Origin: a virus
Taxonomy: Duplodnaviria; Heunggongvirae; Uroviricota; Caudoviricetes
Length of the DNA: 24,740 nt
Strand: one strand, 5' to 3'
Virus record (IMG/VR): IMGVR_UViG_648276671_000014
Part shown: positions 4,202 through 21,001 of the stretch, piece after piece
How the letters are laid out: every line of letters starts with the position of its first letter
How positions within the stretch are numbered: the stretch's first letter is position 1
Notes under the pieces: generated by a model
The model's input: only the letters and a program-made list of their open reading frames with translations
What the model was told of the DNA's origin: nothing
The model's database searches: none
Program-made: the position numbers and the translations under genes

Positions 4202-5055
4202 GCACCATCCTGAAATGGGCGGGAAATAAAACCGCCATTATGTCCGAACTGAAAAAACACCTTCCTGCTGGCCCGCGACTGGTTGAACCTTTCGCGGGTT
4301 CCTGTGCTGTGATGATGGCGACGGATTACCCCAGCTATCTGGTTGCTGATATTAATCCTGATTTAATCAACCTCTATAAAAAGATTGCCGCTGATTGCGA
4401 AGCGTTTATATCTCGTGCCAGAGCTTTATTTGAGGAAGCAAACAGGGAGGTGGCTTATTACAACATAAGGCAGGAGTTTAACTGCTCAACTGAAATTACT
4501 GACTTCATGAAAGCAGTATATTTCCTGTATCTCAATCGTCACGGTTACCGTGGGTTATGTCGCTATAACAAGAGCGGGCATTTCAACATTCCCTACGGTA
4601 ATTATAAAAATCCGTATTTCCCTGAAAAAGAAATTCGCGCATTTGCAGAGAAAGCCCAGCGAGCAACGTTTATCTGCGCCAGCTTTGATGAAACGCTGGC
4701 GATGCTGCAGGTGGGGGATGTGGTGTATTGCGATCCGCCTTATGACGGTACGTTTTCCGGCTATCACACTGACGGCTTCACTGAAGATGACCAGTATCAC
4801 CTGGCATCTGTTCTTGAATATCGATCATCAGAAGGTCATCCAGTCATTGTTTCTAACAGTGACACATCCCTGATCCGTTCGCTGTATCGAAATTTCACTC
4901 ACCACTACATCAAGGCAAAACGCAGCATCGGCGTGTCGGCTGGCGAGAGTAAATCTGCAACAGAAATCATTGCTGTTTCCGGGGCGCGCTGCTGGGTGGG
5001 ATTTGATCCTTCGTGTGGCGTGGATAGTTCTGCTGTGTACGAGGTGCGTATATGA
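4198..5055 (+). CDS. dam: Dam-like N6-adenine DNA methyltransferase (285 aa)
   Basis: N-terminal LKWAGNK...EPFAGS (AdoMet-binding) and catalytic DPPY motif; [14 protein letters not shown] segment resembles E. coli Dam; GGAG Shine-Dalgarno, start overlaps the upstream stop (ATGA). Confidence 0.85.
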
Positions 5056-7466
5056 GTCATGACGATATGAGCAACTCTAGCGGCTTTAACGAGGCCGCTG
5101 CAGCATTTTCATGGAACGGCCCGAAAAAGGCCATTAACCCTTATCTGGACCCGGCGGAAGTTGCGCCGGAGTCTGCACTTTCAAACCTGATCACTCTGTA
5201 CGCTGCCGATAATGAGCAGGAACAGCTGCGCCGCGATGCACTGAGTGAGCAGGTCTGGGAGCGTTATTTCTTTAATGAATCTCGTGATCCTGTCCAGCGC
5301 GAAATGGAGCAGGATAAGCTCATTAGCCGGGCAAAGCTGGCGCATGAACAGCAGCGTTTTAACCCGGACATGGTCATTCTGGCGGACGTCAGCGCCCAGC
5401 CCACCCATATTAGCAAGCCGCTGATGCAACGTATCGAATACTTCAGCAGCCTGGGCAGGCCAAAGGCTTATTCCCGCTATTTGCGTGAGACGATTAAGCC
5501 ATGTCTGGAGCGACTGGATTGTGTACGTGACAGTCAGCTGTCTGCTTCTTTCCGTTTTATGGCAAGCCATCAAGGGCTGGAGGGCCTGCTGATCCTGCCT
5601 GAAATGAGTCAGGATCAGGTGAAACGCCTGTCCACCCTGGTAGCTGCGCATATGAGCATGTGCCTTGATGCAGCTTGTGGCGATTTGTATGCCACCGATG
5701 ACGTTAAGCCAGAAGAAATCCGCAAGACATGGGAAAAGGTGGCGGCGGAAACCCTGCGTCTGGATGTCATCCCACCTGCGTTTGAGCAACTCCGTCGGAA
5801 AAGAAACCGCCGTAAACCCGTGCCCTATGAACTCATTCCGGGTTCGCTGGCGCGTATGTTGTGCGCCGACTGGTGGTATCGGAAATTATGGAAGATGCGT
5901 TGCGAATGGCGGGAAGAGCAGTTGCGTGCTGTCTGCCTGGTCAGCAAAAAAGCATCTCCCTATGTCAGCTATGAAGCCGTGATGCATAAACGTGAGCAGC
6001 GCCGTAAGTCGCTGGAGTTTTTCCGTTCTCATGAACTGGTGAACGAAGACGGCGACACGCTGGACATGGAGGATGTGGTAAACGCCAGCAGCAGCAACCC
6101 TGCGCATCGCCGCAATGAGATGATGGCCTGTGTTAAAGGTCTGGAGCTTATCGCGGAAATGCGCGGTGACTGCGCCGTTTTCTACACTATCACCTGTCCG
6201 TCACGTTTCCATTCCACGCTCAACAACGGCAGACCCAACCCAACCTGGACAAATGCGACGGTAAGACAAAGCAGCGATTATCTGGTCGGCATGTTTGCTG
6301 CATTTCGTAAGGCAATGCACAAAACCGGGTTGCGCTGGTATGGCGTACGGGTGGCTGAGCCGCACCATGACGGTACTGTGCACTGGCATCTCATGTGCTT
6401 CATGCGTAAAAAAGACCGCCGCGCCATCACTGCATTACTGCGTAAGTTTGCCATCCGTGTAGACCGCGAGGAGCTGGGCAACAATACGGGGCCACGCTTT
6501 AAGTCTGAGCTGATTAACCCGCGCAAAGGAACACCGACAAGCTACATCGCGAAATACATCAGTAAGAACATTGACGGGCGTGGTCTGGCTGGCGAGATCA
6601 GCAAGGAAACGGGTAAATCCCTGCGTGATAACGCCGAATACGTCAATGCCTGGGCGTCTCTGCATCGTGTTCAGCAGTTCCGCTTCTTTGGTATTCCGGG
6701 ACGTCAGGCTTACCGTGAACTTCGCTTGCTGGCTGGTCAGGCGGCAAGGCAACAGGGTGACAAAAAAGCAGGTGCGCCGATACTGGATGACCCGCGCCTT
6801 GATGCCATCCTGGCTGCTGCTGATGCTGGTTGTTTTGCCACCTACATCATGAAGCAGGGCGGCGTACTGGTTCCCCGTAAATATCACCTTATCAGAACCG
6901 CTTATGAAATCAACGAAGAGCCGACCGCCTATGGCGATCACGGCATTCGTATTTATGGCATCTGGTCACCCATTGCAGAGGGCAAGATCTGCACTCATGC
7001 AGTGAAGTGGAAAATGGTTCGTAAGGCCGTTGACGTTCAGGAGGCGGTAGCCGACCAGGGCGCTTGCGCCCCTTGGACTCGTGGCAATAACTGTCCCCTT
7101 GCTGAAAATTTGAACCAACAAGGGAAAGACAAATCAGCTGATGGGGATACCAGGACGGACATTACCCGCATGGATGACAAGGAGTTGCACGATTACCTGC
7201 ACAGTATGAGCAAAAAAGAGCGCCGGGAACTGGCTGCAAGGTTACGCCTGGTGAAACCGAAACGGCGTAAAGACTACAAACAGCGAATTACAGACCATCA
7301 GCGACAGCGGCTCGTCTATGAACTGAAGTCCAGAGGATTTGATGGCAGCGAGAAAGAGGTCGATTTACTCCTTCGCGGCGGCAGTATTCCGTCAGGAGCA
7401 GGCCTGCGTATCTTCTATCGGAACCAGCGTTTGCAGGAAGATGATAAGTGGCGAAACCTGTATTAA
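5052..7466 (+). CDS. A: Replication initiation endonuclease, gpA/RepA type (804 aa)
   Basis: Large early ORF in the expected position and size, with the tyrosine-containing [12 protein letters not shown] segment remembered from P2 A family proteins; start overlaps the dam stop. Confidence 0.9.
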
Positions 7467-8538: not shown

Positions 8539-8738
8539 TGGCAACATTACTTTTAGCAGTGATTTTGGTTAGTGGTTTTATTTATGTAAACCTATCACTT
8601 TCAACAAGATACCGATATAAGCGTTCCAACGGCTGGGACGCTTATTTTTTGTGGCTGCCTGGGGTATCGTTTTTTTCTCCTTGGCGGTTTTTTCACCTTT
8701 ATTTTGAACGTCAGCGGAGGGTTTCGTTGGCTGGCTAA
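8538..8738 (+). CDS. Small membrane ORF (66 aa), probably the N-terminal fragment of a frameshifted multi-pass membrane protein
   Basis: Translationally coupled ATG; hydrophobic helix LLLAVILVSGFIYVNL; reading frame ends just after three poly-T tracts. Confidence 0.4.
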   Translation: MATLLLAVILVSGFIYVNLSLSTRYRYKRSNGWDAYFLWLPGVSFFSPWRFFHLYFERQRRVSLAG

Positions 8739-8772
8739 TGCCTTGAATCTAACACCTGACAGTTTTAATGGC

Positions 8773-9378
8773 ATGTTGTCTTCATCGAAAGACAAACTTC
8801 AAAGAATAAATGAAATCAAACAGATAGCATGGGTTATGATTTCAATTGTTCTCGCTGCGATTTCAGGTTTTGGAAATAAGTTACGCACATCACGTGGAGA
8901 TCGTCGCTGGGATGCCTTAGCTAAAGCTGTGGGTAATAACGCTTTCGAATCATTACTCATGGAAGCGTCCGCAAGACAGTTTCCGATCATAGCAACTCTG
9001 TCGTCTCGCAAAATCTATGTTGGTCTTGTTACTTGTCCGGCGTTAGAAAACGGGCTTTCAGAACACCTTGAACTTCTCCCGATGTTAAGCGGATATCGGG
9101 ATAAAGATGATCTAACGATTAGTATCACGACTAACTATCACCAACATTATCTTGATAGTGGTGTGATAAGTGGAATGTCTCGGCTTAATATCGAAGATTT
9201 CCGTGTGCTCATACCAAAAGATGAGGTTGAAACAATTTCGTTTTTTGATACTGAGACATATAACAAATTTAAAGAAAATGAAGCCAGGGATAGAAAGAAC
9301 TGTCGAAAGATTGGTAGTAAAAGTGCATCTTCGCGCAGCAAGCGTGCAGCAGATGCTGAGTCAAATGATCGTGCATGA
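8773..9378 (+). CDS. Hypothetical protein (201 aa from ATG 8773; frame is open from 8590), probably the C-terminal continuation of the 8538 gene
   Basis: No Shine-Dalgarno before ATG 8773 or the upstream TTG 8704; frame stays open back into the 8538 ORF; hydrophobic segment IAWVMISIVLAAISGF then a soluble domain. Confidence 0.45.
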   Translation: MLSSSKDKLQRINEIKQIAWVMISIVLAAISGFGNKLRTSRGDRRWDALAKAVGNNAFESLLMEASARQFPIIATLSSRKIYVGLVTCPALENGLSEHLELLPMLSGYRDKDDLTISITTNYHQHYLDSGVISGMSRLNIEDFRVLIPKDEVETISFFDTETYNKFKENEARDRKNCRKIGSKSASSRSKRAADAESNDRA

Positions 9379-9426
9379 CTATGCTGCATGAGATCGCATG
9401 ATCGTTTGAGGATCGTTTTTGCTAAG

Positions 9427-9450
9427 GCCCGCCAGAACTGGCGGGCTTTT
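9427..9450 (+). terminator. Rho-independent terminator (GCCCGCCA-GAAC-TGGCGGGC then TTTT)
   Basis: Perfect 8-bp GC-rich stem followed by a T run, 49 bp after the operon stop. Confidence 0.6.
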
Positions 9451-9495
9451 GCGTAGATCATGCACCTGCATGAAAACTACTACATAAAGCGGGCA

Positions 9496-9514
9496 GGCGT
9501 GGCGGGGATACGAG
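9496..9514. other. Candidate cos cohesive-end site (GGCGTGGCGGGGATACGAG)
   Basis: First 13 nt match the remembered 186/P2 cohesive end (GGCG[T/A]GGCGGGGA...), followed by TGCGCG as in P2; lies between the early region and portal gene Q. Confidence 0.4.
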
Positions 9515-9538
9515 TGCGCGTAATAACTAATATTCCTA

Positions 9539-9567
9539 TTGACTTTCTATGATGCAATAGCTAATTT
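9539..9567 (+). promoter_or_regulatory. Putative promoter (-35 TTGACT, 17-nt spacer, -10 TAATTT) for the tRNA-like leader and HEPN-motif ORF
   Basis: Hexamers read directly; would start transcription at about 9574. Confidence 0.35.
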
Positions 9568-9573
9568 ATTTCT

Positions 9574-9657
9574 AGGCCTATAGTTTAATTTGGGAAAACG
9601 GCGGAGTATGATTTAGGTTATATATCCGTCATACCGGTTCGATTCCGGTTAGGCAAA
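9574..9657 (+). other. tRNA-like element (degenerate tRNA or tRNA mimic)
   Basis: Canonical T-arm ACCGG-TTCGATT-CCGGT (9633-9649), D-arm GTTT-AATTTGGGA-AAAC (9583-9599), U8-A9-like TA, 5 of 7 acceptor pairs; anticodon stem is not canonical and there is no CCA. Confidence 0.35.
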
Positions 9658-9685
9658 GAGCATTTTAGAGTGTTCTTTGCCTAAC
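9648..9685 (+). repeat. Perfect 12-bp inverted repeat (GTTAGGCAAAGA ... TCTTTGCCTAAC) forming a long hairpin ending 1 nt before the Shine-Dalgarno of the downstream ORF
   Basis: Arms at 9648-9659 and 9674-9685 are exact reverse complements; the loop can pair further with G-U pairs. Confidence 0.8.
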
Positions 9686-9697
9686 AGGATACGTAAA

Positions 9698-10447
9698 ATG
9701 ACTGATGACGAGATTAAAAATATTTTCCATGCTCAAACTGATAATGTTAGAGAGCTTGAGAAAGTCTGGAAACAAATAGTCAAAGAAATTAATACTGCAT
9801 TACGAACAGATAATGCAGTCCAAGTTGCACTTAAAACCAAAATGCTAGGTTTGGTTTTTTGCGCTCTTGCCGAAGCTCAATTTTCAAAGTTGATCCACAC
9901 GCCCGGTCAATTTTCCCCTAATGAAATAGAACAGATTAAATATGCAGCTTCATCTAATGTCTCAGATGGATGGTTAAAGTGCATAAATTTGGCTACGAGA
10001 CGACTATCGAAAGGCACAAAGCATAATCATGTTCCTAATGTTATTCAGGAGCTTGAAAGACTAGTTGATGATTTTATAAAAGCGCCAAGTTTAATTAGAA
10101 ATAAAATTGCGCATGGACAATGGGTTGTCGCTCTTAATAGAAAGAATACACATGTGAACTCAGAAATGACACATACTTTGCGTAATTTGACAATAGTGGA
10201 ATTAACAAAGTTTAAAGATGCTTTCACGAGAATGTCGCGAATAGTCGAAGATATTATTAAATCTCCTAATAAAGCTCATTTGCGTGATTATTGGCCGCAG
10301 CTTGAAGAGTTTAGAGCAAAGCAAAAGGAAATGGATAGTTGGACTCTTGCTGAAAAAGTCTTCCAATTAAAAAAGAAATATAATTACTCATCTAATATGA
10401 GATGTGAATCATGCGGTCAGTTACATGTTGATAGAAATAAACAATGA
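9698..10447 (+). CDS. HEPN-motif protein (249 aa), candidate RNase or abortive-infection effector
   Basis: AGGA Shine-Dalgarno 8 nt before ATG 9698; R134-N-K-I-A-H139 fits the HEPN Rx4-6H signature; AT-rich codon usage unlike the phage core. Confidence 0.65.
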   Translation: MTDDEIKNIFHAQTDNVRELEKVWKQIVKEINTALRTDNAVQVALKTKMLGLVFCALAEAQFSKLIHTPGQFSPNEIEQIKYAASSNVSDGWLKCINLATRRLSKGTKHNHVPNVIQELERLVDDFIKAPSLIRNKIAHGQWVVALNRKNTHVNSEMTHTLRNLTIVELTKFKDAFTRMSRIVEDIIKSPNKAHLRDYWPQLEEFRAKQKEMDSWTLAEKVFQLKKKYNYSSNMRCESCGQLHVDRNKQ

Positions 10448-10494
10448 TGATTATTATTTTGTGACACTTTCAATATTTTAATGCTTTATATATT

Positions 10495-10522
10495 AGCAAT
10501 GGTCATTAACATGACCATTGCT
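10495..10522. repeat. Perfect palindrome (AGCAATGGTCAT-TAAC-ATGACCATTGCT) between the HEPN-motif ORF and Q
   Basis: 12-bp arms are exact reverse complements with a 4-nt loop; no flanking T run. Confidence 0.8.
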
Positions 10523-10537
10523 ATGTGACCTAATATA

Positions 10538-11581
10538 TTAGTTATCTTCTGTCCTGAGCGAGTAAAAGCTAAAACGGAGAATTTCTTCACCAAGCCAGTT
10601 ATTTAGTTCCTGTAAACGTTTCTGCAGTGACATTAGTTCATTGCGTACAAAAACGCGACTAGCTTTCTCCACATCCCCAAATCCCCCAACATTATTTGGC
10701 ATTATCCCCATCATCTGTGGCGGCACGCGGTGCGCTGCCATCATGTCATCCCGACTCACGTTCTTGATATTAAGAAATTCATCCTTCGCCGCGACTTCTG
10801 ACAATGGGATGATCTGAAGCCCGTCCTTTTTGCCGTTAGGCGAGTACATAAACAGGTTGCGGAAGTTGCCTGGACCTTTGGCGCTTTTCATCGCGTTGCG
10901 GAGGTTGTTCACATCTTCCTGGTTCTGCGCGGCATCGGTCATGTACATGATGAAGCCTGCATGGCTGCCGTTGATGTAATACTTACGGCGGAACAGCGTG
11001 GCAGACTCGTTGAGCAGGGCGGATGGAATGGCAGAAAGATAGCCGGGCAGGCCGTAGATCTCCTGGTTGATGTCCGGTTCCATCAGATGAAAAATGCTGC
11101 CTTTCGTGAACTGATACGGCTGGGTTGTCATACCGTATTGCACAAACCAGTAGGTATCCAGGTCTAACCCGCGTCGGGTGTATTTTGCCAGCGCAGGCTC
11201 AAGGGCGATAACTTCACCGAATCGGTTCGTGCGTTTCTCCAGGTAGGCGTTACCAAATACCAGATAGTCCTGCACAAAACGCGAAAAAGCCTGCTGGCTG
11301 AGCAGCGGATGAGGGATATAGGTACTGGTCAGAATGTTGCACTTTACTGCAATCGGGGAACTGTGATGCACGGCGGCGCGGAAGGTGCGCGCCAGTCCGT
11401 TAAAGCTGACGGGCGGCTCATACCAACGGTCCATCTGTACGCATTCCACATAGTCCAGCAGTTCACGGCGGTCCAGAACAGGAACGGGATCGCCGAAGCT
11501 GAATGCTTCGGCTGTAGTTTGACTTTTAAGCTGGATCTGTTTCGTCGCCGCAGCTCGGTTCTTCTTACTCTTTCCCATCAA
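10538..11581 (-). CDS. Q: Portal protein gpQ (347 aa)
   Basis: Size and position immediately after cos and upstream of P as in P2/186; stop overlaps P (ATGA). Confidence 0.9.
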   Translation of the reverse strand: MMGKSKKNRAAATKQIQLKSQTTAEAFSFGDPVPVLDRRELLDYVECVQMDRWYEPPVSFNGLARTFRAAVHHSSPIAVKCNILTSTYIPHPLLSQQAFSRFVQDYLVFGNAYLEKRTNRFGEVIALEPALAKYTRRGLDLDTYWFVQYGMTTQPYQFTKGSIFHLMEPDINQEIYGLPGYLSAIPSALLNESATLFRRKYYINGSHAGFIMYMTDAAQNQEDVNNLRNAMKSAKGPGNFRNLFMYSPNGKKDGLQIIPLSEVAAKDEFLNIKNVSRDDMMAAHRVPPQMMGIMPNNVGGFGDVEKASRVFVRNELMSLQKRLQELNNWLGEEILRFSFYSLRTEDN

Positions 11582-13344
11582 AAAATCTCCACAATATTGC
11601 TGGTATTGGCGGATTCGCCCTGCAGCGGTTCGTTAAACAGTGCGTGCATCGTTGCCCATGCCAGATCGGCGTGGCTGGCTTCTTCGCTGCGGCTGGCTTC
11701 ATAGGTCGGGCGGTTGCCACTGGCGGTGGTGGCGCGACGGATTGCCATAAATGACTGCGCAATGTCGGTATGTCCGGCGTCAAACTCCAGACGGCGGTGG
11801 CTGATAATGTCGTAGGCCTTGAGTACCAGGGCGTTTTTAACGTTGGGGTTGTAGACAAACTCCCGGACGGCAGGAAAGAACGCTTTCACGTTCTCGTAAA
11901 CCCCGTGACCAACGCCGGTTGAGTCGATGCCGATGTAGGTCACGTTGTACTGCTCGGTCAGTTTTTTGATTGCGTCAGCCTGGGCGCGGAAGTCCATCCC
12001 GCGCCACTGGTGACGCTCAAGAATGCGAAACTTACCGCCCGGCACGGCTGGCGGTGCCACCACCACGCATCCGGCGCTGTCGCCGTTCTGCGTACCTTTT
12101 GCCGGGTCATAACCGATCCACACTTCGCGCCAGCCAAACGGGCGCAGGGCCAGAGCATGAAAGTCGGTCCAGACTTCCCAACTGTCCACCATGCACGCCT
12201 GCAGCTCGCTGAGCGGAAACACGGACGCGAGATCGTCCACAAACTCGCACATCAGCAGGTTCTGGTATTCGTCCAGGCTGTACTCCATGCGCAACTGGTC
12301 GAGGTCGAACAGGTTACAGCCGCCGCGCACCGCATCTTCCACAGTGACTATCTGGCGGTACTGCCCGTCTGCGCACAGCAGGCCGGGGGCCAGATTGCTG
12401 TGGGACAGGTCGATGTCCACCTTATCGGCTTTGTTGCGCCCACGATTGAACAGCGCACCGGACCAGAACGGATAAGCACTGTGAGTCAGGCTGGATGGCG
12501 TGGAAAAATAGGTTTGTCGCCATTTTTTGTGAATAGCCATCCCGGAAGCCACTTTGCGCAGCTCCTGGAATTTCGGTATCCAGAAATATTCATCCAGATA
12601 CAGGTTGCCGTGGTAACTCTGGGCCGTGCGGGCATTGGTGCCGAGGAAGTAAAGCGTGGCTCCGTTAGGAAGCACCATCGGATCGCCTTTTAGCTCTACC
12701 TCGACTTCTTTGGCGAAGTCGATGATGTACTGCTTAAAGACGTGAGCCTGTGCCTTACTGGCGGAAAGGAAAATCTGGTTACGTCCGGTAAGCAGGGCGT
12801 CAATCAGGGCTTCACGGGCAAAGTAAAAGGTCGCGCCGATCTGGCGTGACTTCAGCAGGTTGCGGATGCGGTTGGTTTTTCCGGCTTCCCACCAGTGGCG
12901 CTGGTAGTTGAACATGGAGGAATGGAAGATTTCTTCCAGTTTCTCAATCTGTTCATCGGTGAAAACATTCTTTTCCGGCTGACGGCGCGGGCCCTTATTG
13001 CGGTTGGCGACGTTAGGGTTTAAGTCAGCTTCGTTGCCGCCATTGTTAAACTTGCCGATCCGCGCGTGGCGCTCCGACTGGCGCGCCAGCAGGTCAATTT
13101 CTTTGAAATCTTTCCCTTCTTTATGCTCCTTCATGATGAGCTGGCAGTAGCGTGCGGCGGTGGTGAGCTGCATCTGATCCAGCGGCCCATAGTCACCCCA
13201 CTTGTCGCGTTTTTTCCAGCTGTGAACGGTTGCAACTTTCTCGCCCAGCATTTCAGCAATGCGGGCTACGCGGTATCCCTGAAAGTACAGCAGCATGGCC
13301 TGCCGACGGGGATCGAGATCTGCGGGTGTCAGTGTGGTGTTCAT
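11578..13344 (-). CDS. P: Terminase large (ATPase) subunit gpP (588 aa)
   Basis: Size matches P2 P; divergent from O across the late promoter region. Confidence 0.9.
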   Translation of the reverse strand: MNTTLTPADLDPRRQAMLLYFQGYRVARIAEMLGEKVATVHSWKKRDKWGDYGPLDQMQLTTAARYCQLIMKEHKEGKDFKEIDLLARQSERHARIGKFNNGGNEADLNPNVANRNKGPRRQPEKNVFTDEQIEKLEEIFHSSMFNYQRHWWEAGKTNRIRNLLKSRQIGATFYFAREALIDALLTGRNQIFLSASKAQAHVFKQYIIDFAKEVEVELKGDPMVLPNGATLYFLGTNARTAQSYHGNLYLDEYFWIPKFQELRKVASGMAIHKKWRQTYFSTPSSLTHSAYPFWSGALFNRGRNKADKVDIDLSHSNLAPGLLCADGQYRQIVTVEDAVRGGCNLFDLDQLRMEYSLDEYQNLLMCEFVDDLASVFPLSELQACMVDSWEVWTDFHALALRPFGWREVWIGYDPAKGTQNGDSAGCVVVAPPAVPGGKFRILERHQWRGMDFRAQADAIKKLTEQYNVTYIGIDSTGVGHGVYENVKAFFPAVREFVYNPNVKNALVLKAYDIISHRRLEFDAGHTDIAQSFMAIRRATTASGNRPTYEASRSEEASHADLAWATMHALFNEPLQGESANTSNIVEIF

Positions 13345-19203: not shown

Positions 19204-20787
19204 TTAGAGTTTCAGTGAAATCGTATCCTTGTATTTTTGTTTTATTAACATAAAGTAATCATCAATGCTACCAGAGACTAACATTGCTTCATGATCAATT
19301 CCGTTTATATAGAACCCATTGAACTCAATTGAATTTACTCCATATAAATGTTGAATTCTATCTGCGGTTAATTTATTTTCGGCAATACCAACTAAAATAT
19401 AGCCTTTTGCGCTTTTTCCAATATTATTTATTGCTACGCAAGTTTGTAATATTCCTTTTAAACATTCATCATCAAATTCATTTTTACCTGATAAATTAAA
19501 GAACCCCTGTTTGAAATCATAACTTGGTTGTTCAGTTCTAGAATTTGTTAATAGATTGCGAATTTCAGTTACCCAAGCATGATTCACATACTTTTGAGGA
19601 GCAGGTTGGAAGTAGCGACTTATTAATGCAACAAGATCATTAACACTTTTTTCACGAGTGCTTGCAGCCCAGCGGCCACCATCGGTAACCATAATTATGG
19701 TATTGCCAGTGTTTTTTAATTGCGAGAATAAACCTTCTTTATCAATTAATTGCATATTTTGGTTGAAAAGAAGTTCATAAATAGACAAAAACACAGCTTG
19801 ATAATAACGAGGGCATTCTTGAGATGAATTATCCTCCCCTAAAATATGGCTTCTAAAAGTATCATTTTTTCCGTCATATAGGCTTGTAATTAATTCATAT
19901 ACAGCTATGAAATTCTGCTTAATAGTGGCAGCGTTATTGGTTTGAATGAAAGACTCTAATTGCTGTCTGACACCATGAGCATGAGAGGAGTTTCCTTGAC
20001 CATAGAATGTGTCGAGAGAAGTTGACCCAGATGTGGGTTTTTCTTCTAGACTGATATATGCAAGGATATTGGCTATCAATTCCTCGTCATCAGAATCACG
20101 AATACTTCGTCTTGTTAAAATATGATGTTTTATATAAAAGTGGTTATCGATATTTACCCCGTACTCCAATCTATCGTTACTGATTGAAATTTTGTGCATT
20201 TGCTGGAGATTCATAATGTCAGAATGGCTAGTATCACCTCTGATCGATGTTGATATCGATCTGACCAGTTCAGAGAAGTTACTAACTGTTCCTGCACTAC
20301 GTAATTCTTGTTTGGATAAAATCTTCCCGTTTGAGTTTATTCGTCTGAATACTTCGTCAATATTTTCATTTGTGGAGCTATATTCTGATATTGCAAATCG
20401 ATAACGTGCAATAATTGCTGAAGAATCACGGGAAAGAATTGGTTCTTTCTGAATTAAAGTTCCATTATCTTTAAGTTGTTTTGTTAAAGCTATAGAGTCC
20501 AAATCAAAATATTGTCCATCTAATGAAAATCTCTGTTCGATGAAGCTCATAATTGCTTCTAATCTTTGCATTCCATCCAATATTTCTCTTTGTTCATTGA
20601 TGGTAACAAATAATAATAACGGAATAGGATATTGTTGCAGCATAGAAGATATTAAAGAAGTCTTTTCTTCTAGAGACCATACAAGTTTCCTTTGATAACG
20701 TCTATTGACTATCAAATTTCCTTGCAAATACCATTCGTATAATTGCTCGGTAGTCCTTGAGTCAATATCAAGATTTTCATTTGGCAT
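19204..20787 (-). CDS. DUF262 (ParB/Srx-like, DGQQR-type) domain protein, 527 aa, with an unassigned C-terminal half
   Basis: AAGGAG Shine-Dalgarno 7 nt before ATG 20787; N-terminal motifs NRRYQRKLVW and DGMQRL match the DUF262 signature; no DUF1524-type EHI.P motif seen; strongly AT-rich and opposite in orientation to the flanking late genes. Confidence 0.8.
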   Translation of the reverse strand: MPNENLDIDSRTTEQLYEWYLQGNLIVNRRYQRKLVWSLEEKTSLISSMLQQYPIPLLLFVTINEQREILDGMQRLEAIMSFIEQRFSLDGQYFDLDSIALTKQLKDNGTLIQKEPILSRDSSAIIARYRFAISEYSSTNENIDEVFRRINSNGKILSKQELRSAGTVSNFSELVRSISTSIRGDTSHSDIMNLQQMHKISISNDRLEYGVNIDNHFYIKHHILTRRSIRDSDDEELIANILAYISLEEKPTSGSTSLDTFYGQGNSSHAHGVRQQLESFIQTNNAATIKQNFIAVYELITSLYDGKNDTFRSHILGEDNSSQECPRYYQAVFLSIYELLFNQNMQLIDKEGLFSQLKNTGNTIIMVTDGGRWAASTREKSVNDLVALISRYFQPAPQKYVNHAWVTEIRNLLTNSRTEQPSYDFKQGFFNLSGKNEFDDECLKGILQTCVAINNIGKSAKGYILVGIAENKLTADRIQHLYGVNSIEFNGFYINGIDHEAMLVSGSIDDYFMLIKQKYKDTISLKL

Positions 20788-21001
20788 AATTTTTCTCCTT
20801 GTTAGATTGAACTTATATATTGTCAATAAACATCTTTTGTGTCAAAGATTACATAGTAACTGCCTAAATTAATTGGCTTTTAATAATTAAAGACGTAGCT
20901 TTCAAGTGCTTTTTTAAGAGCATTGAACTTCTTAACTTGCGCAACGTCATTCGACCTTTTGCAACGTATTAATGCTCTAACGCAGACCATTGAAAGGCAT
21001 T

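Follow-up and report, generated by a model that had tools for sequence, protein, structure and literature searches.

Why does a sequence that resembles a transfer RNA (tRNA) stand directly in front of a protein-coding gene in the cargo region of a prophage? We asked this of positions 9574-9656 (+ strand) of IMG/VR record IMGVR_UViG_648276671_000014, a 24,740-nucleotide (nt) stretch of DNA that was analysed as a whole (the window) and is a P2-like Escherichia coli prophage. The initial annotation of this sequence had pointed out a tRNA-like element and offered three explanations for it: a tRNA mimic, a structured regulatory leader or an integration-site remnant. Our analysis supports the first two and speaks against the third. 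The element is the leader of an open reading frame (ORF) whose product is probably a divergent ribonuclease (RNase) of the HEPN type, and we interpret the pair as a HEPN toxin or defence module under RNA control, in which the partner, a tRNA mimic, is without precedent and the leader has two states that both covary. The parts of the element are:

9574-9656, + strand: the tRNA-like leader, delimited by sequence, Rfam, folding, covariation and a family covariance model (69.4 bits)
9576-9580 paired with 9650-9654, + strand: acceptor stem of 5 base pairs (bp), preceded by the unpaired A1 and G2 and followed by T8 and A9 (9581-9582); from sequence and fold
9583-9599, + strand: D-arm, GTTT (9583-9586) paired with AAAC (9596-9599), loop AATTTGGGA; from sequence and fold
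9600-9630, + strand: closed 13-bp arm with one bulge and the loop UUAG (9613-9616), followed by a CAT linker; from the fold of the isolated element
9633-9649, + strand: T-arm ACCGG-TTCGATT-CCGGT with the loop TTCGATT, followed by the tail AA(AG); from sequence and fold

The element is the body of a tRNA without an anticodon loop

Most of the anatomy given in the initial annotation, namely the T-arm, the D-arm, the U8/A9 equivalents, an acceptor stem pairing at five of seven positions and the missing CCA, is found as it was described. The exception is the anticodon stem, which had been called degenerate with about two Watson-Crick pairs and in fact forms a hairpin of 13 bp, interrupted by one bulge and closed by a loop of 4 nt. 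Folded in isolation, the element (85 nt) forms the cloverleaf at -24.9 kcal/mol (z-score -3.06), and none of 200 shuffled sequences is as stable. The Rfam tRNA model (RF00005), a check that the initial annotation had proposed, matches 9576-9654 with a marginal 30.7 bits against a cut-off of 29 (E-value 0.0078 for the whole window, 8e-5 for the local 261 nt), and its alignment keeps the basal 5 bp of the arm around a 19-nt insert. Three relatives score below the threshold with this model (26.6-28.6 bits) and one above it (L004, 34.5 bits). Apart from the generic tRNA family, no family of Rfam 15 matches the leader, and a cmscan search over 9500-9760 at E-values up to 10 recovers only tRNA and chance matches to microRNA precursors.

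Set against a canonical tRNA, the element has a 13-bp arm with a 4-nt loop in the place of a 7-nt anticodon loop on a 5-bp stem. In the place of a 7-bp acceptor stem with discriminator base and CCA it has 5 bp, with A and G at positions 1-2 opposing A at positions 71-72, and its 3' side continues as AAAG into a second hairpin (hairpin 2, see below). The D-arm and T-arm with their elbow and tertiary nucleotides, in contrast, are those of a tRNA, invariant or nearly so across the 77 sequences aligned. ARAGORN calls no tRNA anywhere in the window. Thus, the leader is the body of a tRNA that lacks the anticodon loop and not a tRNA gene, and the initial annotation was right to doubt that it was a normal one.

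Covariation backs all four helices and, in addition, the tertiary pair 15-48. In the 77-sequence alignment, compensatory, two-sided changes are present in 17 of the 18 tested pairs, and the covariation score of 0.615 compares with 0.222 after shuffling, where 0 of 500 trials reach 0.615, and with at most 0.19 for slid registers. Pairing amounts to 99.5% in the T-stem and 92.7% in the 5-bp acceptor stem. Moreover, U8, A14, G18, G19, G53, T54, Psi55, C56, A58 and C61 are invariant or nearly so, and covariation is also seen at the Levitt pair 15-48, which is A-U in 57 of 78 sequences and G-C in 7. The conserved tertiary nucleotides and the covariation of 15-48 argue for a real L-shape with an elbow. 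Family-wide, three features depart from tRNA: the 5-bp acceptor stem, the lack of CCA and the closed hairpin that replaces the anticodon arm. A family covariance model built from the 77 distinct elements scores the window element at 69.4 bits, which is not an independent value because this element is part of the seed alignment. The element is real and far from what chance would produce.

The tRNA-like RNA and one protein family occur together

The initial annotation had suggested that the element be looked for wherever the downstream ORF occurs. Among homologues with at least 200 nt of upstream sequence, all 82 loci carry the T-loop motif GTTCRAnnC on the strand of the ORF, usually 25-115 nt before the start codon, and all of these upstream elements parse as the same cloverleaf. 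The covariance model finds matches of 32-80 bits directly upstream of the ORF in 83 related loci and in the window; most of these were seed members, so that the high scores are in part by construction. Genuine tRNAs in the same loci reach only 24-31 bits with this model. The association is kept in viral relatives whose proteins are 19-29% identical.

The linkage also holds in the reverse direction. A loose pattern of D-arm and T-loop, which we tried on viral contigs, recovered mostly ordinary phage tRNAs with normal anticodon loops and was useless as a test of association because these dominate; a stricter pattern made of the RNA only (T-arm, five arbitrary nucleotides and AAAGRGCA) was used instead. 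Scanned against metagenomes, it returned 40 loci, and the family ORF lies directly downstream in all 39 that have enough downstream sequence. No other conserved protein family recurs within about 3 kb across 88 loci. The module is one RNA and one protein.

In some family members ARAGORN does call a tRNA, and the calls are inconsistent (Lys, Arg, Cys, Pyl, Pro, Ile, Gln or undetermined; L009, L011, L036, L042, L043, L051, L069, L072 and others). Genome annotations may for this reason list the leaders as tRNA or pseudo-tRNA genes. This is of practical concern, since leaders are sometimes mis-called as tRNA genes with arbitrary anticodons while the protein is annotated merely as hypothetical. Together with the Rfam threshold being reached, such calls are what would favour a degenerate or unusual real tRNA gene, or an attachment-site remnant captured with the cargo. 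We consider both to be highly improbable and have rejected them on the conservation of the cloverleaf and the missing tRNA features: the 7-nt anticodon loop and CCA are lacking, the acceptor has 5 bp, the ARAGORN anticodons disagree, and the cloverleaf, always placed alike and on the same strand ahead of one ORF family, shows compensatory changes across phyla. What was found is a full cloverleaf and not a 3' tRNA fragment, and neither a match restricted to the terminal 25 nt or so of a tRNA nor an absence from homologues, which the initial annotation had named as the outcome that would speak against its own observation, was observed. In a megablast search of 9440-10520 against 5,426 complete RefSeq E. 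coli genomes, the match was limited to the first ~99 nt, which are prophage backbone, and the element and the cassette around it were absent, with the reservation that megablast requires an exact word of 28 nt and would miss weak similarity to a host tRNA.

The arm that stands in for the anticodon arm is variable in length. The D-stem and the T-stem are 15-57 nt apart; the arm mostly has 3-8 bp and loops of 3-7 nt, and in some lineages it is much longer. In a 74%-identical relative (L001, about 2907-2926) the distal arm, 9606-9625 in the window, is replaced wholesale while the remaining leader is almost identical, and two bases of this arm also differ in a sister prophage (L139). This replacement could reflect a neutral expansion segment or a specificity element. 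The latter would fit a tRNA-shaped RNA that serves as cofactor or guide: perhaps once processed, this RNA would stay on the HEPN protein to activate or target it, with the fast-evolving distal arm possibly providing the specificity, much as a CRISPR RNA (crRNA) does with Cas13. The strict and reciprocal co-occurrence, the swapped arm and the variable spacing are in line with such a role, which we nevertheless hold to be improbable, as the arm is mostly a short closed hairpin that evolves by ordinary compensatory changes and offers no long single strand for pairing with a target.

The leader is predicted to begin at the transcription start

Two features upstream of the element concern its expression:

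9527-9573, + strand: left edge of the cassette and putative sigma-70 promoter, placed by the end of homology and by positional conservation
9539-9544 and 9562-9567, + strand: -35 element TTGACT and -10 element TAATTT with a 17-nt spacer, predicted start at about 9574; from sequence

We assign this promoter because such sites keep the same position in other loci: of 82 distinct loci, 39 have their best promoter-like site ending 5-8 nt ahead of position 1 of the element, with a distance of exactly 6 nt in 32 of them. In the window, a strict consensus scan passed over the proposed promoter, as only 3 of 6 positions of the -10 hexamer agree with the consensus. Because promoter-like sites sit just before position 1, the leader of 83 bases is most likely the primary 5' end of the messenger RNA (mRNA), for which RNase P would not be needed.

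The T-arm/acceptor stack and the elbow are features that tRNA-processing enzymes recognise. It is therefore conceivable that the tRNA-like 5' end serves as a processing or stability signal that recruits RNase P, RNase Z or RNase E, or protects the end, and thereby sets the half-life of the mRNA with no specific protein interaction. The conservation of exactly these features and the position of the element at the very 5' end of the transcript would suit this explanation. We regard it as quite improbable, since a generic element would not be confined to one protein family, as the 39 of 39 loci found by the RNA pattern indicate, and since a transcript that starts at position 1 leaves RNase P nothing to remove.

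A hairpin ending at the ribosome-binding site competes with the cloverleaf

Downstream of the T-arm, and overlapping it, lies a second structure:

9644-9689, + strand: hairpin 2, with a 17-bp core (9648-9664 paired with 9669-9685) and the loop 9665-9668
9644-9646 with 9687-9689, + strand: predicted extension of hairpin 2 in the minimum-energy fold, in which T9644, C9645 and C9646 of the T-loop and the T-stem 3' strand pair with G9687, G9688 and A9689 of the Shine-Dalgarno site
9686-9689, + strand: Shine-Dalgarno site AGGA, separated by an 8-nt spacer from the ATG at 9698-9700; from sequence

Hairpin 2 excludes the cloverleaf, because it uses up the acceptor 3' strand and part of the T-stem. 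For the leader up to and including the start codon (9574-9700), the minimum-energy fold is hairpin 2 at -45.0 kcal/mol (z-score -5.8), compared to -34.1 kcal/mol with the cloverleaf enforced. The competing hairpin is present in most lineages, which we call class I and which include the window. Here the acceptor 3' strand and the AAAGRGCA that follows pair downstream in a nearly perfect hairpin of 17-22 bp that starts inside the T-stem 3' strand. Across 95 distinct leaders, positions 66-80 are paired in 95-100%, by many pair types, and the T-stem positions 63-65 in 85-98%. In the same leaders the acceptor 5' nucleotide, the acceptor 3' nucleotide and the hairpin partner show three-way covariation, and selection therefore keeps both of the mutually exclusive helices. 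All 63 full leaders that were folded have hairpin 2 with an open acceptor as their structure of lowest energy, and enforcing the cloverleaf costs 8-24 kcal/mol (median 13.8) of stability, as calculated with nearest-neighbour energies that leave out tertiary contacts. Of 61 leaders, 33 have a Shine-Dalgarno-like tract that starts 2-4 nt past the pairing of the acceptor strand; its usual distance from the start codon is 5-8 nt. An element that begins at the predicted transcription start and competes with a hairpin ending at the Shine-Dalgarno site bears out the suggestion of a structured regulatory leader.

In class II leaders, which are found in Bacteroidota, some Burkholderiales, cyanobacteria and others, the cloverleaf has a GGGGG/CCCCC acceptor, hairpin 2 is absent and the ORF starts about 25-50 nt downstream.

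Hairpin 2 was also considered as an intrinsic terminator and rejected, as nearly all leaders have no U-tract after the stem; no terminator-like site was found on the + strand between the RNA and the ORF. Tandem repeats are absent from 9380-10560, and each locus has a single element. As a separate observation, the top of hairpin 2, the four pairs next to its loop (9661-9664/9669-9672; family positions 77-80), does not covary freely but is conserved in sequence as CAUU...AGUG, in 68-80 of the 95 leaders per pair, while the loop varies, which hints at a sequence-specific contact or cleavage site.

Leaders of the yjdF riboswitch type offer a precedent for such an arrangement: a tRNA-like fold competes with pairing between the T-loop and the Shine-Dalgarno site, and tRNAs grafted into leaders activate translation (PMC9142559). 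For the leaders studied here the equivalent alternation, between the tRNA-like fold and T-arm/Shine-Dalgarno pairing, is a prediction. The element might then be a cis-regulatory, riboswitch-like sensor and nothing else. Some ligand or factor, be it a small molecule, a host enzyme that binds tRNA or a phage protein, would stabilise the tRNA fold and so switch on HEPN synthesis; the RNA would have no neutralising effect on the protein, which would be controlled by its expression level or its own activation. This would account for two mutually exclusive folds that both covary and for a hairpin whose end reaches or overlaps the Shine-Dalgarno site, and single-protein HEPN defence nucleases that need an activating signal do exist, for example DARNA (bioRxiv 10.64898/2026.02.22.705581). 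Two observations make us see a sensor of this kind as possible, if rather unlikely. Class II retains the full tRNA mimic without a competing hairpin, so that the tRNA fold must do more than switch; and a constitutive HEPN RNase without a partner would need another safety device, for which no other conserved gene is available.

The downstream gene probably encodes a divergent HEPN ribonuclease

The leader is followed by the one protein-coding gene of the module:

9698 (ATG) to 10447 (stop), + strand: 249-amino-acid ORF, an all-helical HEPN-like putative RNase with the catalytic-type motif R134-N-K-I-A-H139-G-Q-W

The segment R134-N-K-I-A-H139 has the form of the HEPN motif Rx4-6H (RNxxxH). Among 26 diverse homologues, the block R134-N-K-x-A-H139-G-Q-W is invariant, as are several residues in the N-terminal part, and RNKIAHGQW is kept in relatives of 19-29% identity. 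The AF2 model is all-helical with a predicted local distance difference test score (pLDDT) of 90.9. Family members give sub-threshold matches to the Pfam families HEPN_AbiU2, HEPN_Swt1 and HEPN_MAE_28990. The window ORF itself is assigned to no family of Pfam, NCBIfam or PADLOC; in PHROGs it matches only phrog_12663, of 'unknown function'. Foldseek found nothing significant in the PDB, and a profile search of PDB sequences returned only chance matches. Matches to IMEF_Flp and to encapsulin cargo were discarded as spurious, since they are restricted to one C-terminal helix. The product is probably a divergent HEPN RNase.

The family comprises 447 clusters at 50% identity, and nearly all its full-length members have about 230-250 amino acids with no evident added domain. 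At least 187 species-representative genomes carry it, from Proteobacteria, Bacteroidota, Cyanobacteria, Acidobacteriota, Nitrospirota, Myxococcota, Planctomycetota, Clostridia and one Paceibacterota genome, and it also occurs in phages. In E. coli and Salmonella the protein is annotated as 'hypothetical protein'. A peculiarity of the window protein and its closest relatives (P0002, Pantoea) is an extra C-terminal tail with a C-x-x-C ... H arrangement (MRCESCGQLH; 10411-10444, residues 238-249), which other homologues lack and whose last residues have a mean pLDDT of about 62.

Proposed function of the module

The structure of the RNA and its linkage to the ORF are very well supported; what the module does, from the RNase activity and toxicity of the protein to its binding of the RNA, the direction of the switch and the trigger, is inferred. 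We favour, with a probability of about one half, an AbiF-like RNA-protein toxin/antitoxin or abortive-infection module in which the tRNA mimic acts as regulator and probable neutraliser. Transcription would begin at position 1 of the element, and the RNA would first fold as an L-shaped tRNA mimic whose elbow is intact, whose acceptor has 5 bp and no CCA and whose anticodon end is sealed off by a hairpin; the Shine-Dalgarno site would then be free. About 35 nt later, the far more stable hairpin of 17-22 bp could take over the 3' strands of the acceptor and the T-stem and occlude or abut the Shine-Dalgarno site. The leader might thus toggle between a tRNA-like state in which translation is on and a hairpin state in which it is off unless something holds the tRNA fold. 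At the same time, the tRNA mimic could serve as a non-cleavable decoy or RNA antitoxin for a HEPN enzyme that recognises tRNA. Phage infection would release the nuclease, or license its synthesis, and lead to abortive infection. That the mimic is the likely partner of the nuclease is suggested because no second protein is conserved and because class II keeps the fold without the switch.

Several points weigh against this proposal. PADLOC-DB 2.0 contains no family that matches the ORF at an E-value of 0.01 or below, and the HEPN assignment is made from the motif together with modest structural and profile similarity (nil in Foldseek, sub-threshold in Pfam). The -10 hexamer in the window is weak. 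There is neither a terminator before the ORF nor a repeat array, unlike in classical type III systems. The calculated energies give hairpin 2 so large an advantage that the tRNA fold may not last long unless it is bound, and the switch is not universal, as class II has no hairpin 2. Finally, if the toxin were itself the binder of the tRNA fold, the result would be positive feedback, which is awkward for an antitoxin; cis cleavage of the leader or a different binder would resolve this.

A more far-reaching reading makes the leader itself the infection sensor of a new kind of immune module. Hairpin 2 would hold the RNA in the off state until a phage-derived factor that binds or modifies tRNA, or a disturbance of the host tRNA machinery, captures the mimic; the leader would then flip to the tRNA fold and license translation of a HEPN suicide or defence nuclease. 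We regard this as unlikely. If it were true, it would represent RNA-based sensing by tRNA mimicry, distinct from both protein sensors and the decay-based release of type III systems.

Should the AbiF-like module be confirmed, a HEPN nuclease and a complete tRNA mimic as its partner would make up a toxin or defence module of a kind not described before. With a size of only about 1 kb the module is self-contained, and it occurs in many phyla as well as in phages. Moreover, the shape of the RNA hints that the nuclease recognises the shape of tRNA, which makes both target and trigger testable.

Comparison with known systems

The YrlA (Y RNA) tRNA-like module and the tRNA-like domain of transfer-messenger RNA (tmRNA) belong to stand-alone RNAs whose partners are Ro60 and SmpB, respectively. 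In both, as here, an acceptor/T-arm stack with an elbow copies tRNA and another helix replaces the anticodon arm. The element described here differs in that it is an mRNA leader with the HEPN ORF as its sole conserved neighbour, and in that it has no above-threshold Rfam match to these RNAs; a partial beta-tmRNA match (21.7 bits) is seen in L001 and L002 only and not in the window.

With type III toxin-antitoxin systems (ToxIN, CptIN, TenpIN), which act in abortive infection, the module would share an RNase toxin with a co-transcribed upstream RNA, and it shares the two-part mobile organisation. The type III antitoxin, in contrast, consists of tandem repeats processed by the toxin and is followed by a terminator, whereas here there is one copy with neither repeats nor terminator. 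The protein here is probably of the HEPN type, and no PADLOC model of the ToxN/AbiQ type is matched.

The closest parallel in organisation is AbiF/RCd22 from a Clostridioides difficile prophage, in which an upstream noncoding RNA (ncRNA) binds the HEPN toxin directly, neutralises it in cis and in trans, and lowers its expression; the same study links Cas13 structurally to Abi_2/AbiF-type proteins (PMC12373285). AbiF/Abi_2 systems resemble the present module in having a lone gene for a HEPN-type toxin, putative in the case of the module, a structured ncRNA upstream on the same strand, a prophage or mobile location and no protein antitoxin. They differ from it in three respects: neither the window protein nor 26 family members match Abi_2 (PF07751), even at E-values up to 1; the abiF RNA motif is not matched at E-values up to 10, the RNA here being a complete tRNA mimic; and the conserved hairpin that competes for the Shine-Dalgarno site has no described counterpart in AbiF. 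If our proposal is correct, the module would join AbiF as another, independent example of a HEPN toxin under the control of a structured RNA of its own, an arrangement that has been linked to the ancestry of Cas13.

At the level of the RNA, the likeness to yjdF lies in an mRNA leader that resembles tRNA, with a D-loop/T-loop elbow, and in an off state, predicted for the leaders studied here, that pairs the T-arm or T-loop with the Shine-Dalgarno region and competes with a tRNA-like fold that turns translation on. The differences are that Rfam gives no yjdF match, that a HEPN ORF and not a yjdF gene lies downstream, that the competitor is a 17-22 bp hairpin which also consumes the acceptor strand, and that class II is without a switch. 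If true, the leader would be a second natural translational switch derived from tRNA.

Finally, PrrC, RloC and DARNA are defence nucleases with a HEPN motif, and the named ones cut tRNAs. That the protein studied here also recognises tRNA is suggested because its partner RNA is tRNA-shaped. The known enzymes are larger, are governed by proteins or DNA signals and not by a tRNA-like RNA, and have no detectable sequence relationship to it. Judged by these comparisons, the module would appear to work most like the AbiF-type HEPN/ncRNA systems and, at the RNA level, like yjdF, as a member of neither family. Searches of Rfam and of the literature on tRNA-like elements together with HEPN, antitoxin or abortive infection found no description of it, although an earlier one may exist.

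The cassette and its prophage setting

The backbone of the window is that of a P2-like phage:

1-1212: integrase, P2-like prophage backbone
5052-7466: gpA, P2-like prophage backbone, which also encodes a DinI-like protein
10538-13344: portal and terminase, P2-like prophage backbone

The module lies in a variable slot between the gpA/DinI genes and the portal gene. The cassette (about 9527-10500) is low in G+C content (GC) and contains the putative promoter, the tRNA-like leader, hairpin 2, the Shine-Dalgarno site and the 249-amino-acid ORF. Homology to the Fels-2 backbone ends at ...GCGCGTAAT (about 9525), DNA similarity to P2-like phages of E. coli, Fels-2 and Klebsiella ends at about 9525-9538, and Fels-2 carries an unrelated gene of 565 amino acids at the same place, which identifies 9527-10500 as a cargo cassette. 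In otherwise identical prophages, the cassette is preceded by a gene of 225 amino acids, by genes of 71 and 280 amino acids, by a gene of 141 amino acids or by nothing. Because of this variation immediately upstream, we consider the cassette to be an independent unit of a multi-cassette slot. Other known cargo of this slot in P2-like phages consists of defence genes.

Just 5' of the cassette is an ORF of 224 amino acids (8704-9378, + strand; phrog_3630, function unknown), which is swapped or missing in the related prophages L138-L141. The terminator-like hairpin that follows it (GGCCCGCCAGAACTGGCGGGCTTTTGCG, about 9427-9454) is backbone sequence common to Fels-2.

A second low-GC cargo gene (19204-20826, - strand; GC 0.31-0.36) encodes a protein of 539 amino acids with a GmrSD_N/DUF262 domain (Pfam, 1.4e-17) that matches NsnA (2.5e-23) and PD-T4-2_A (1e-17) in PADLOC. 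It is probably a type IV restriction-like defence gene in the other variable slot of the prophage.

Elsewhere in the family, a homologue in a lambdoid prophage of Edwardsiella tarda (L142, 9086-12379) adjoins an RVT_1 reverse transcriptase, an SMC/AAA_15/AAA_21 ATPase and a gene of 243 amino acids, a trio that resembles a defence system of the retron or defence-associated reverse transcriptase (DRT) type. In the viral contig L006, which carries a distant family member, an int-alpA RNA (RF02996, 45.5 bits) is found at 6174-6241, some 2.5 kb downstream of that member.

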